Shown here: positions 1 to 2,959 of the stretch, in pieces
Position numbering within the stretch: position 1 is the stretch's first letter
Layout of the letters: each line of letters starts with the position of its first letter
Assembly (NCBI GenBank): GCA_046484345.1
Contig: JAWOJA010000010.1
Location: forward strand, 1,811-65,810
Source: Kiritimatiellia bacterium
Lineage (GTDB): Bacteria; Verrucomicrobiota; Kiritimatiellia; CAIKKV01
DNA length: 64,000 bases
Reading direction: 5' to 3'
Made by a program: the position numbers and the translations under genes
The notes under the pieces: generated by a model
What the model was told of the DNA's origin: nothing
Databases searched by the model: none
Seen by the model: only the letters and a program-made list of their open reading frames with translations

Positions 1-825
1 GAACATCGGAATGGCAATCCACAGAATGGTCAACGGGTTGGCCAGGATCGTCTCCCCCTTGAAGCTGAACAGCAGCACCAGCGTGCCCAGCAGCGCGATG
101 ATGGAGACCGGCCCGAGCACATGCAGAAAACGGGTTTCGAACCACGCCAACCCCTTGGCGGCAATGGCCCACTTACGCGTAAAATAGCCGGCCACCAGCG
201 GCAGCGCCACATAGATGCCGATGGACAGCAGCAGCGCCTGCCACGGCACGGGCATCTTGTTCACGCCCAGCAGCCAGCCGCCCAGCAGACCATACAGCAC
301 CAGCATGCTGAGCGAGTTGATCGCCACCATGATGAGCGTGTGACCCTGGTTGCCCTTGGCCAGGTAGCTCCACATCAGCACCATGGCCGTGCAGGGCGCG
401 ATGCCCAGCAGAATGGCCCCCGAAATGTAGGAGCGGAACAACTCCACCGTCGTGCCGTCCTTCACGACTTCCGTGCCCGGCAGCCAGTCTTTGAACAAGA
501 CGCCCAGGAACAGCCAGGCGATCCCGAACATCGTGAAAGGCTTGATCGCCCAGTTCACCACCAGCGTCAGCAGGACCGGCTTCGGACTCTTGCCGGCCTT
601 GACGACCTCGGCGAAATCGATCTTCACCATGATCGGGTACATCATGAAAAAGAGCGCGATCGCAATGGGAATGGACACCACCGGCGCGCCGTTGACCATG
701 ATGGCCATGCCGTCCAAAGCCCGGGCGACCCCCGGGGCAACCTTCCCCAAGATGATCCCCCCAATAATGCAAAGCGCCACCCACACCGTCAAATACCGCT
801 CAAACACATTCAATTGCTTCGTCAT
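1..825 (-). CDS. acr3: Arsenite efflux transporter, Acr3 (ArsB/Acr3 bile-acid:Na+ symporter superfamily); partial, C-terminus lies beyond the window start
   Basis: Minus-strand translation from ATG at 825-823 gives [23 protein letters not shown]..., a multi-TM protein with typical Acr3 sequence ([19 protein letters not shown]). GGAG-type RBS sits upstream. The frame stays open to position 1. It is missing from the ORF track only because it has no stop codon in the window. Confidence 0.85.
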
Positions 826-838
826 CGCTTCTCCTTGA

Positions 839-1264
839 TCAAGACAGCCCGTCCGGAAGCGTTTCCACAAACGCTCGGATTTCGTCGCGTACGCGCCGGT
901 AATGTCCCAGCGCCTCGTCGTCCGTCTTCGCATTACGCGCCAGCCGGGGGGGATCGTCGAACCCCCGGTGAATTACCTTTGTTTTTCCAGGAAAAAGGGG
1001 ACAAGCCTCGTGCGCGTGGTCGCAAACCGTGATCACATAATCGAAGGCGACACCCTTCAGCTCGTCAACGAGTTTGGAACGCTGGCCCGAAATATCGGCG
1101 CCCGCCTCGGCCATGACCTTCACCGCGTTCGGGTTCAACCCGTGCGTCTCGATGCCCGCCGAATAGGCCTCGATCACGTCGCCCTTGAGGCGCCTCGCCC
1201 AGCCCTCGGCCATCTGGCTCCGGCACGAGTTGCCCGTGCATAAAAACAGGATCTTCGTTTTCAT
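839..1264 (-). CDS. arsC: Arsenate reductase, LMW-PTP family (thioredoxin-coupled ArsC)
   Basis: 141 aa. N-terminal P-loop [14 protein letters not shown] and downstream Cys residues are typical of Bacillus/Staphylococcus-type ArsC. Its start overlaps the hgcB stop (ATGA). Confidence 0.85.
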
Positions 1265-1569
1265 TTTTTCCCCTCTTCTCCTTCCTTACCGGAACAGCAG
1301 CAGTCGCCACCACAGCAGGTTTCTTTGCCCGTCAGCAGCCCGTTGATGATGGCTTCCGCGCAGCCGACCCCGCTGTTGACCGCGATCGCTTCGACGGGGC
1401 AGTTCAGGGCGCACGCCCCGCACTCCATGCAGGCGTCGCGATCCAGGATGCGCGCCTTGCGCGCCTCGACCGCAAACACCGCGTGCGGACAGACAACCGC
1501 GCACAGGCCGCAGCCGATGCAGCGGTCCACGTCGAGGGCCAAAGAGAGGTCGCGTGTTAAGTATCTCAT
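1261..1569 (-). CDS. hgcB: HgcB, 2[4Fe-4S] ferredoxin of the mercury methylation pair
   Basis: Internal ATG (residue 127 of the 228-aa track ORF) gives a 102-aa protein, MRYLTRDLSLALDVDRCIGCGLCAVVCP...CMECGACALNCP. It has two CxxCxxCxxxCP motifs plus a C-terminal Cys-rich tail (TCCGGDCCCSGK). The ATG overlaps the hgcA stop (ATGA). The upstream 126 aa of the long ORF overlaps hgcA out of frame. Confidence 0.85.
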   Translation of the reverse strand: MRYLTRDLSLALDVDRCIGCGLCAVVCPHAVFAVEARKARILDRDACMECGACALNCPVEAIAVNSGVGCAEAIINGLLTGKETCCGGDCCCSGKEGEEGKK

Positions 1570-2561
1570 CGGGCAAGCGTCCAGGTGAGGAGTCCGATTA
1601 CGCCCAGGGCGATTTGGACCGGAAGCGCGGCGCGCACTTCGCGCCGCACGCCGGAGGGCGATGTGAAAGTCGTCGAGCCGGTGTAGTTCAGCAACAGATG
1701 CGAGGCCCCCGCCGTGACCAGCAGGAGCCAGCCCGCGCCGCGCATCTGGGACCAGTCCGGCACGGCCAGCCAAACGCCGAGCAAGCCCAGCCCCAACCCC
1801 AGCACGGCGCCCTTGACCGAAAAAACGCGGCTCGGCAGCCAGGGCAACAGCAAAGGACCGAGCAGTCCGGCCGCGACATAAGAGGCGAGCCACAGCAGGA
1901 GCGCCGGCCCGCCGAGATGCCGCACCGCGGACCCGGAATAGGCCCACCCCGTAACCCCGGCCAGCAGCGCCAGGAGAACCCCCACAAAAAGCATCCGATT
2001 GAAATGGATCACCAGTTCCAGGGGCGCCACGGCAAGCCGGTCCCGCCAGTTGAAGCGCACCCGGCGCATACCCGTGGTGGCTTTCATTCCGGCCTTTATA
2101 AAAGCGGGAATATCCGCGGCATCGACCGGGCCATACACGACGGCGAATCCGGATTGTTTTTTAACCTCGTGCGCCGCAATGCCCGGGGCGCCCAGCTGGG
2201 GAACGACCAGGCGACGGTGCGCGACCCGCTCGCGCAGGCCGCAGGCCTCAATGCGGCGAACCAGCTCCTCCGTTCCGAAAGTCCCCTTGCCGGCCGCGCA
2301 CCAGACGTTGATGCCCGCCGTGTCCAGCACCAGGATCCAGGCGTCCATGCCGCCGAGCGAACGCCGCAGATAATTGAACGACAGCTTGTAGTTTGCCGAC
2401 ACGAAAACAGGCGACTCCAGACCGGCGGCGCCCAGCGCGTAAAGGCCCGGCGTCACGCGGTGCCGCATCCGCCGCCAATTCAACCGCACGCCCAAAGCGC
2501 CAAGGTGGTCCCTCAGGGTCCACTCGGAGCGGGCCGTAAAAATGGGCGCGGTCTCATTCAT
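1566..2561 (-). CDS. hgcA: HgcA, corrinoid protein of mercury methylation (CFeSP-like cap domain plus C-terminal transmembrane domain)
   Basis: Contains the HgcA cap-helix signature GINVWCAAGKGTFG. The C-terminal half is strongly hydrophobic (multiple TM helices). The start is ambiguous: the longest ORF starts at 2585 (MPEALLQIMNETAP...), but the ATG at 2561 (MNETAP...) has GGAGG upstream and forms an ATGA overlap with the arsR stop. Confidence 0.85.
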   Translation of the reverse strand: MNETAPIFTARSEWTLRDHLGALGVRLNWRRMRHRVTPGLYALGAAGLESPVFVSANYKLSFNYLRRSLGGMDAWILVLDTAGINVWCAAGKGTFGTEELVRRIEACGLRERVAHRRLVVPQLGAPGIAAHEVKKQSGFAVVYGPVDAADIPAFIKAGMKATTGMRRVRFNWRDRLAVAPLELVIHFNRMLFVGVLLALLAGVTGWAYSGSAVRHLGGPALLLWLASYVAAGLLGPLLLPWLPSRVFSVKGAVLGLGLGLLGVWLAVPDWSQMRGAGWLLLVTAGASHLLLNYTGSTTFTSPSGVRREVRAALPVQIALGVIGLLTWTLAR

Positions 2562-2926
2562 GATTTGCAGAAGAGCCTCCGGCACAGGGCGTCTTTGTCC
2601 TCATCCGTAATTTTCTTCAGCCGCTTGCGATCTTTGGCCATCCGCTCCTGCCCGTCCATATCCTTCAGCAGGAGGCGCAGGATTTTACCGGCGGTCGGCG
2701 ACCGGAACGCTTCGGACAACCGGAAGTGCGTCCAGCGTCCTTCCTTGCGGCTCTCCACCAGCCGCGCCGCGCGCAGGATCGACAGATGCTTGGAAACGGT
2801 GGAAGGCGCCAGGTCCAGGAGGGCGATCAGCTGGCAGGCGCACAGCTCCCCGCCGCGCAGCGCATACAGGGCGCGCAGCCGGTTCTCATCCGCCAGCGCC
2901 TTGAGCTCATCCAACAAGTCCCGCAT
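2558..2926 (-). CDS. arsR: ArsR/SmtB-family metalloregulator with an As(III)-type CxC site
   Basis: HTH motif LRALYAL...ELCACQLIALLDLAPSTVSKHLSILRAARLV. ELCACQL matches the ELCVCDL metal site of ArsR. The ATG at 2926 has an AAGAGG RBS. An upstream ATG at 2941 is possible. Confidence 0.8.
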   Translation of the reverse strand: MRDLLDELKALADENRLRALYALRGGELCACQLIALLDLAPSTVSKHLSILRAARLVESRKEGRWTHFRLSEAFRSPTAGKILRLLLKDMDGQERMAKDRKRLKKITDEDKDALCRRLFCKS

Positions 2927-2939
2927 GAAAACCTCTTTC

Positions 2940-2959
2940 ATTTCGTAGATTAGCGAAAT
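2940..2959. promoter_or_regulatory. Candidate ArsR operator: inverted repeat ATTTCG-N8-CGAAAT overlapping the arsR start region
   Basis: A perfect 6-bp inverted repeat with an 8-bp spacer lies at the arsR 5' end, in the divergent region facing the plus-strand operon. ArsR/SmtB operators are typically imperfect inverted repeats in this position. Confidence 0.25.

Follow-up and report, generated by a model that had tools for sequence, protein, structure and literature searches.

hgcAB within a predicted ArsR-repressed arsenic resistance operon of a Kiritimatiellia bacterium, and a P1B ATPase cassette at the same position in sister operons

The DNA analysed here, called the window throughout, is a stretch of 64,000 nucleotides from a Kiritimatiellia bacterium (GenBank assembly GCA_046484345.1, contig JAWOJA010000010.1, positions 1,811 to 65,810), and the subject is the mercury methylation gene pair hgcAB, which lies at the start of the window among arsenic resistance genes. 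The sequence and the table of open reading frames (ORFs) place five genes on the minus strand in the block 1-2926, in the order arsR-hgcA-hgcB-arsC-acr3. The gene arsR (2558-2926, start ATG 2926, stop TGA 2558-2560) encodes an ArsR/SmtB repressor of 122 amino acids. It is followed by hgcA (1566-2561, start ATG 2561-2559, stop TGA 1566-1568), which encodes a corrinoid methyl-transfer protein of 331 amino acids with a C-terminal membrane domain, and by hgcB (1261-1569, start ATG 1569, stop TGA 1261-1263), which encodes a ferredoxin of 102 amino acids with two [4Fe-4S] clusters and a Cys-rich tail. Next comes arsC (839-1264, start ATG 1264, stop TGA 839-841), for a thioredoxin-coupled arsenate reductase of 141 amino acids with the low-molecular-weight phosphatase fold. 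The block ends with the 5' part of acr3 (1-825, start ATG 825), 275 codons of a probable arsenite efflux permease gene that runs past the window start.

Three of the junctions are ATGA overlaps of a start and a stop codon: arsR/hgcA (2558-2561), hgcA/hgcB (1566-1569) and hgcB/arsC (1261-1264). Between arsC and acr3 there is a 13-nt gap, tcAAGGAGaagcg (826-838, minus strand), read directly from the sequence, which bears the acr3 ribosome-binding site. An earlier note on this DNA had described the five genes, the three overlaps and the gap, and the overlaps and the gap are exactly as it gave them; the arsR start (2926, not 2941) and the upstream limit of the unit are small corrections. Ribosome-binding sites are strong for arsC and acr3, and a GGAGG stands 14 nt upstream of the hgcA start. 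No recognisable ribosome-binding site was found in the sequence upstream of the hgcB start, so hgcB probably relies on translational coupling. Given these translation signals, coupling through the ATGA overlaps is plausible for hgcA and hgcB.

The overlaps were rejected as a signal specific to this operon, since ATGA or GTGA overlaps recur at no fewer than five further same-strand junctions of the window: that of arsP with an outer-membrane factor gene (17069-17072), two among the three RND (resistance-nodulation-division) efflux genes (15738-15741 and 14677-14680), and two further pairs. GTG 2585 was rejected as an alternative start, because homologues align to ATG 2561 for hgcA. Two antisense ORFs on the plus strand, 1554-2948 and 121-1032, have no Pfam match and no family match, and were treated as high-GC shadow ORFs. 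The GC content of the operon (0.63-0.64) is that of the remaining window, which argues that the operon is not a recent import, and an origin as a genomic island was rejected on the same ground. Rfam and tRNA scans of the window gave no match.

The gene identities given by the earlier note are borne out by family models and diagnostic motifs. The profile search that it proposed for HgcA and HgcB puts both proteins above their NCBIfam cut-offs. HgcA scores 396 bits with NF040863 (cut-off 275), with residues 9-329 aligned to model positions 3-321 of 325, and HgcB, encoded directly downstream, scores 114 bits with NF040864 (cut-off 99). The cap-helix motif NVWCAAGK of HgcA, with its cobalt-ligating Cys, is at residues 85-92 and is unchanged in an alignment of 23 sequences; N85, V86, W87, C88, A89 and A90 are invariant across these homologues. 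The C-terminal half of HgcA, residues 176-331, has four to five hydrophobic helices, with Kyte-Doolittle segments at about 185-205, 218-240, 250-268 and 311-329 and a weaker one near 276-292. The protein is 100% identical to a Kiritimatiellia protein already called HgcA at NCBI, from a metagenome-assembled genome (MAG). A search of the PDB found no solved HgcA structure, only relatives of the corrinoid iron-sulfur protein (CFeSP). HgcB has two CX2CX2CX3C clusters (Cys 17/20/23/27 and 47/50/53/57), a further Cys70, and the tail CCGGDCCC with Cys 85/86/90/91/92. By these features HgcA and HgcB are a complete, canonical mercury methylation pair, and they would be expected to methylate mercury.

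The ArsR protein scores 84 bits with NF033788 (NCBIfam cut-off 55) and is 100% identical to an NCBI protein from a Kiritimatiellia MAG. Its helix 3 holds the sequence ELCACQL, in which Cys29 and Cys31 (numbered in the 122-residue form) make a CXC motif, and near the C-terminus there is a conserved CX4C pair, Cys115 and Cys120. All the motifs in the earlier note (NVWCAAGK and the C-terminal transmembrane domain of HgcA, the two 4Fe-4S motifs and CC-rich tail of HgcB, ELCACQL of ArsR) are present. ArsC matches the thioredoxin-type model TIGR02691 (E 4e-45) and aligns with B. subtilis ArsC 1JL3 (E 3e-38), so that Cys9/81/88 are in register with Cys10/82/89. Acr3 matches TIGR00832 (E 1e-80, model positions 1-251 of 327) and Pfam SBF (E 8e-45), and its translation shows the Cys motif GIAPCTAMV. 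Pfam results agree with the NCBIfam assignments.

Upstream of arsR is a sigma-70-like promoter (2957-2986, minus strand) that matches the consensus at 11 of 12 positions: TTGACA at 2986-2981, an 18-nt spacer, and a TG-extended TATATT at 2962-2957. It is the strong one of three promoter-like sites seen in 3.6 kb, where 0.3 would be expected, and it extends the transcription unit upstream to the -35 box at 2986. A palindrome, ATTTCG-N8-CGAAAT (6-8-6; ATTTCGctaatctaCGAAAT, 2940-2959, minus strand), takes in the final 3 nt of the -10 box together with the probable transcription start and is the predicted ArsR operator. This is the sole match in the 64 kb with at most one mismatch, against a chance expectation of 0.14. 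In an alignment of nine orthologous promoters the half-sites are invariant or nearly so, and no sequence departs from the blocks TTGAC, ATA-TTCG and GAA-T, whereas the spacer between the -35 and -10 boxes varies. Half-sites kept while the spacer diverges are the pattern of a repressor operator overlapping a promoter, and the palindrome is likely to be the site where ArsR binds.

The start of arsR is most likely ATG 2926, because the ribosome-binding site AAGAGG (2932-2937, minus strand) stands 5 nt upstream of it and because the 122-residue product matches the length common to more than 100 homologues. A purine-rich block is at the position of AAGAGG in all nine aligned promoters. The in-frame ATG 2941 was rejected: it lies inside the right arm of the conserved palindrome, and homologues align to ATG 2926. 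No promoter-like site was found between the arsR promoter (2957) and the acr3 start (825), and the only other minus-strand site is a weak 9/12 match within acr3.

The palindrome also occurs in more distant loci (loci from relatives are given here by L numbers). It is found twice in L103, at 2720-2739 and 6766-6785, where one copy heads a unit of an arsM-like S-adenosylmethionine (SAM) methyltransferase gene, hgcA, hgcB and a permease gene, and the other heads an arsD-arsA-arsR unit. In L121 it stands ahead of arsR, an unassigned gene, DsbD_TM and hgcA, and L034 and L052 contain it too.

The gene order is conserved in relatives. Four independent relatives, with HgcA 53-84% identical to that of the window, keep the order arsR-hgcA-hgcB-arsC-acr3: the contig encoding P0002 (84%, with three 4-bp overlaps), L161/L162 (76%, with the arsC start overlapping the hgcB stop by 4 bp in tblastn), L164/L165 (75%, with ATGA seen in the DNA) and the activated-sludge contig L094 (53%, with the exact five-gene order). 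Two more have variant ars operons. L163 (73%) has arsR-Cys-rich protein-DsbD_TM-hgcA-hgcB-arsC-acr3, and L166 (66%) has arsR-CMD-Cys-rich protein-DsbD_TM-hgcA-hgcB-arsD-arsA-acr3-arsR-arsP-thioredoxin-like. Apart from L094, these relatives were found by exact-protein look-ups; among the matches listed in the broad genome and metagenome scans with HgcA, in which the NVWCAAGK pattern is universal, most loci had 43-54% identity.

A synteny survey, which the earlier note had suggested, found ars structural genes on the same strand within 3.5 kb of hgcAB in 28 of 77 sampled loci (about 36%): 15 of the 45 loci from GTDB species representatives and 13 of the 32 metagenome contigs. The sample consists of hgcAB loci with enough flank among the matches listed, is skewed toward HgcA proteins that resemble the query, and was scored for ars neighbours by tblastn alone with query proteins of this clade. 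The most frequent alternative order in it is arsC-hgcA-hgcB-acr3, whose titled records are mostly Bacteroidales. The spacing between hgcA and hgcB was surveyed with a crude start-codon heuristic and is indicative only. The same order and tight junctions in independent contigs, with ars genes beside 28 of 77 loci, put the arrangement beyond chance.

In several of the close relatives a PemK-family toxin gene with a small partner adjoins the arsR-hgcAB operon (L161 1731-2421; L163 430-1082; L164 2652-3304; P0002-encoding contig 10859-11511). The pair is divergent and upstream in most of them, and downstream in the contig encoding P0002. No PemK toxin homologue was found within the 64-kb window. 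A toxin-antitoxin gene beside hgcA has been discussed for archaea (PMC10349881).

The same regulator also heads operons that lack hgcAB. Long contigs of Kiritimatiellia and Verrucomicrobia MAGs without hgcAB encode four ArsR orthologues (65-80% identical), each at the head of one operon type with the order arsR-(CMD in some)-Cys-rich protein-DsbD_TM-61-amino-acid peptide-P-type ATPase-arsC-acr3 (L169, L170, L172 and L173/L174). In two of the four arsC was not seen: L173 has no called LMWPc gene, and the examined part of L170 has none either. The ATPase is of the heavy-metal P1B type, with 566 bits for TIGR01525, scores above both the Cd and the Cu subfamily cut-offs, and a CPC motif. The 61-residue Cys-rich peptide carries GGCCGSGGNCCGS. 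Together the two genes occupy L169 2994-5077, L170 7885-10205, L172 7184-9318 and L173 7106-9189.

L163 links the two operon types. Its flanks match the P1B-type operons on both sides, with proteins 55-83% identical, yet it has hgcA-hgcB in the middle, and both hgcA-hgcB of L163 and the peptide with the P1B ATPase lie between the DsbD_TM gene and arsC. The arsC products of P1B-type operons are 79-87% identical, the promoter and operator are common to both types, and identities of ArsR and ArsC fail to separate them. Acr3 follows another pattern: the window protein shares 69% identity with the Acr3 of L161/L173/L174, 44% with that of L164 and about 31% with those of L163/L166/L169. Since at least three divergent Acr3 types close operons that are otherwise orthologous, the pump gene has been exchanged too. 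On these comparisons the backbone is an orthologous, mosaic resistance operon under predicted ArsR control, and hgcAB is one exchangeable cassette in it. Relative to the hgcAB-less sister operons (L169, L170, L172, L173), the window operon has an orthologous regulator, promoter and operator, and arsC, with acr3 in the same position, and it has lost or never had the genes for the Cys-rich protein and DsbD_TM.

Those two genes are a recurrent pair between arsR and either hgcA or the P1B ATPase gene: a gene for a Cys-rich protein of about 225 amino acids, then one for a DsbD_TM/CcdA-like membrane protein. The pair is at L163 1584-2980, L166 4659-5954 and L169 1573-2964, and also in L081, L098, L100, L101 and L121, sometimes with a CMD/AhpD-like gene ahead of it. 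The protein of about 225 residues has Cys-rich N- and C-termini (e.g. GGCACGSGCDCQ and GGCGPASGGCGPASAGC) and one hydrophobic helix, and has no Pfam or NCBIfam match. Separately, the HgcB tail TCCGGDCCCSGKE (window 1261-1330) resembles the GGCCGSGGNCCGS core of the 61-residue peptide (L169 2994-3179). The likeness is that of CCGSGGNCCGS in the peptide to CCGGDCCCSG in the tail, both of low complexity, and may be convergence.

The association of hgcAB with ars genes is already known, and the window is one more clean and well-resolved example of it. McDaniel 2020 (PMC7438021), whose Fig. 6 is given to the subject, states that acr3 and arsC flank the hgcAB regions of diverse methylators and that arsR and arsM are close by. 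Co-location of hgcAB and ars genes was reported in Prolixibacteraceae (Peterson 2023, PMC10504345). In Peterson 2025 (PMC11984097), arsR-like genes with acr3/arsC in hgcA neighbourhoods are commonest in Kiritimatiellae, which in Lake Mendota make up 65.5% of hgcA gene abundance and 15.8% of hgcA mRNA, and the presence of an arsR-like gene goes with lower hgcA/gyrB ratios. The low mRNA share and the lower ratios with arsR are consistent with repression. Gionfriddo 2022/2023 (bioRxiv 10.1101/2022.10.17.512643) posed and tested the hypothesis of an arsenic-linked evolutionary function of HgcAB, pointed out MAGs in which arsR, hgcAB and ars genes co-occur, and found that hgcAB of P. mercurii ND132 is controlled by ArsR2, an upstream ArsR-family regulator responsive to As(III) and As(V). 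The earlier note had held the placement of hgcAB between the regulator and arsC/acr3 to be new. These four studies had already described hgcAB located together with ars genes, a link commoner in Kiritimatiellae, so the arrangement is no novelty, and the annotation stands. The note's question of a metalloid-related native role is a real one that Gionfriddo had already posed and partly tested.

Several known systems resemble the locus. As in ND132 arsR2-hgcA-hgcB and its relatives, described in Goni-Urriza 2020 and Gionfriddo, a co-oriented ArsR/SmtB gene stands directly upstream of hgcAB in the window; in ND132 one transcript carries arsR2 and hgcAB, and ArsR2 makes the expression of hgcAB depend on arsenic. 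By the same accounts the ND132 locus has no other ars gene, whereas arsC and acr3 directly follow hgcB in the window. The published description of ND132 ArsR2 gives Cys26/47/49/86/88 and a site of four cysteines, Cys47/49/86/88. The window ArsR, compared with that description, has Cys29/31 and the CX4C pair 115/120, and no second CXC about 39 residues beyond the first. Its orthologues head ordinary ars/P1B operons. In this clade hgcAB may have come under ArsR-family control by a separate route, which would be a refinement and not a new kind of system.

The MAG neighbourhoods of McDaniel 2020 (Fig. 6) and Peterson 2025 (Fig. 4c) have, going by the text of the papers, the same gene set and taxonomic group as the window and nothing essential that differs. 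The operator, the junction overlaps and the alternative P1B cassette are not described in the texts of these two papers. The arrangement arsC-hgcA-hgcB-acr3 of Bacteroidales/Prolixibacteraceae (PMC10504345) likewise places hgcAB between arsC and acr3, all on the same strand. It differs in that arsC is upstream, HgcA is 44-48% identical, and usually no arsR was detected within 3.5 kb with the query of this clade. With the canonical arsR-arsC-acr3/arsRBC operons (S. aureus pI258, the B. subtilis skin element) the window shares an ArsR with a helix-3 CXC, a thioredoxin-type ArsC with the Cys10/82/89 triad, a probable arsenite pump and, by prediction, autoregulation from a single promoter. It differs from them in having hgcAB inserted between the regulator and the structural genes, and an ArsR without the third helix-3 Cys and with a C-terminal CX4C.

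Altogether this suggests that the locus is probably a chromosomal, ArsR-repressed polycistronic operon, arsR-hgcA-hgcB-arsC-acr3. An ArsR dimer would sit on ATTTCG-N8-CGAAAT, overlapping the -10 box, and block RNA polymerase. Arsenite would bind Cys29/Cys31, possibly together with Cys115/Cys120, and ArsR would be released. One mRNA would then carry the five genes, and the ATGA overlaps could pass ribosomes from arsR to hgcA to hgcB to arsC. ArsC would reduce arsenate with thioredoxin, and Acr3 would export arsenite. The expression of HgcA and HgcB would thereby be tied to an arsenic (soft-metalloid) stress signal, and not to mercury. The reading as a single operon is the best one: a lone strong promoter, overlapped by a conserved operator, lies upstream of arsR, the search for internal promoters gave no convincing candidate, and the overlaps are kept in relatives. 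To this extent the operon proposed by the earlier note holds, and its "obligate co-expression" and the coupling are predictions from sequence.

Some observations count against this picture. The window ArsR is without the third helix-3 Cys (Cys37 of the R773 ArsR of E. coli), and its best solved relative is CmtR, a Cd/Pb sensor; with the extra CX4C, this leaves room for a different soft metal as inducer. A P1B ATPase of the Cd/Zn/Cu type is encoded in sister operons that the same regulator heads, and the regulator may not be specific to arsenic. The effector of ArsR is the main uncertainty, and the protein may respond to several soft metals. The ArsC score of 153 bits does not reach the equivalog cut-off (174), nor do the 271 bits of Acr3 reach theirs (283); the Acr3 shortfall is due to truncation, as the window edge leaves only 275 codons of the gene. 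The coding sequences of hgcA and acr3 also contain several weak hairpins resembling terminators, which were judged to be coding artefacts of T-rich membrane-protein codons. To our knowledge no Kiritimatiellia isolate is a demonstrated mercury methylator.

The alternation of cassettes allows a broader proposal, which is offered tentatively and seems rather unlikely as a whole: hgcAB would be one of two interchangeable cassettes in an ArsR-controlled soft-metal(loid) operon of Kiritimatiellia and related bacteria of the Planctomycetes-Verrucomicrobia-Chlamydiae (PVC) group, selected as a module for detoxification or handling of thiophilic metal(loid)s, if cassette position reflects function, and induced by the arsenite-export signal. 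A different account makes the operon a general soft-metal detoxification unit, in which the four cysteines of ArsR respond to several thiophilic ions, among them Hg(II), Cd(II), Pb(II) and As(III), and HgcAB is the mercury module, turning Hg(II) into exported methylmercury and functionally interchangeable with the P1B ATPase. It would be supported by the orthologous arsR, promoter/operator, arsC and acr3 that flank the 61-residue peptide and the CPC-type P1B ATPase in L169, L170, L172 and L173/L174, by the P1B cassette occupying the exact position of hgcA-hgcB of L163, by the peptide motif CCGSGGNCCGS, which is like the HgcB tail CCGGDCCCSG, and by the relationship of ArsR to CmtR. The same position in a mosaic operon is no proof of the same function, however, and acr3 paralogues are swapped as well; we consider this account improbable. 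No description of the alternation between hgcAB and P1B ATPase was found in the literature, where a full-text search (hgcAB, P-type ATPase, arsR), covering few subscription papers and no figures, gave only reviews.

Two further explanations are set against the ArsR-repressed operon. HgcAB could itself be directed at metalloids, for example in corrinoid-dependent methylation of As(III) or in arsenate tolerance, with mercury methylation as a side reaction. About 36% of the sampled loci, from different phyla, have hgcAB embedded in ars genes, which would fit this, as would the position of hgcAB directly after an arsM-like methyltransferase gene in L103 and the gene arsP for a methylarsenite-type permease, which lies 14 kb off in the window and adjoins the operon in L166, L170 and L172. 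An hgcAB deletion strain of ND132 is also reported to be more sensitive to As(V). Against this, the As(III) sensitivity of that strain is reported to be unchanged, arsenic methylation by HgcAB is not reported in the hgcAB-arsenic literature surveyed, about two thirds of sampled hgcAB loci have no ars neighbour, and the HgcA cap helix and HgcB cysteines are the canonical mercury methylation set. We consider a metalloid-directed HgcAB very unlikely. Slightly less probable still is that hgcAB came to lie beside ars genes because the operon was pieced together as a mosaic, or that it hitch-hiked in a frequently recombining resistance locus, with no selected functional link; an internal promoter that escaped recognition might then drive most hgcAB expression. 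Close relatives do differ in the middle cassette, in the acr3 paralogue and in accessory genes (CMD, Cys-rich protein, DsbD_TM, arsD/arsA), PemK-type toxin-antitoxin pairs flank the operon in several of them, and ATGA overlaps are generic in this genome. But independent lineages combine hgcAB with ars genes in differing orders (arsC-hgcA-hgcB-acr3 in Bacteroidales, the PVC order, the arsD/arsA variants), which points to selection rather than accident; the tight junctions are kept down to 75% HgcA identity, and the search between arsR and acr3 turned up nothing promoter-like.

Elsewhere in the window there is a second unit headed by an ArsR-family gene (11594-18755, minus strand). It comprises arsR2 (18429-18755, minus strand, with the CXC motif ERCMCEL), arsP (17069-18466, minus strand, Pfam ArsP_1 E 8e-69), and genes for an outer-membrane factor, a membrane-fusion protein and an AcrB-type RND pump, joined by ATGA overlaps at 17069-17072, 15738-15741 and 14677-14680. 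The ArsP_1 family, to which the arsP product belongs, we take to be methylarsenite permeases. Apparently an ArsR-family gene heads an operon of arsP and RND efflux genes here, which is unusual.

Divergent from the hgcAB operon, on the plus strand at 2980-10163, are an octopine/nopaline-dehydrogenase-family gene (2980-4233, with its true start probably further in) and genes for a small MscS-like membrane protein, a 619-residue ORF product without Pfam match (4934-6793), an asparagine synthase and an MscS channel. This region looks like ordinary chromosomal context. At 37081-38181 (minus strand) there is a 366-residue fusion of Sua5/YciO/YrdC and low-molecular-weight phosphatase domains, which surfaced as a weak ArsC paralogue.

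The genes hgcAB are the sole known genetic basis of microbial methylmercury formation. The predicted operator and the alternation of hgcAB with the P1B ATPase are testable handles that were not found in the published literature. If the tentative reading of hgcAB as one of two interchangeable cassettes is true, it bears on the native role of HgcAB, and it would explain the low transcription by the most abundant hgcA carriers in some lakes, which the Kiritimatiellae are reported to be. The placement of hgcAB in a predicted ArsR-repressed operon implies a methylation capacity that would come on only with arsenite or a similar soft metal, and if it is silent by default, the interpretation of hgcA gene counts from the field would be affected.

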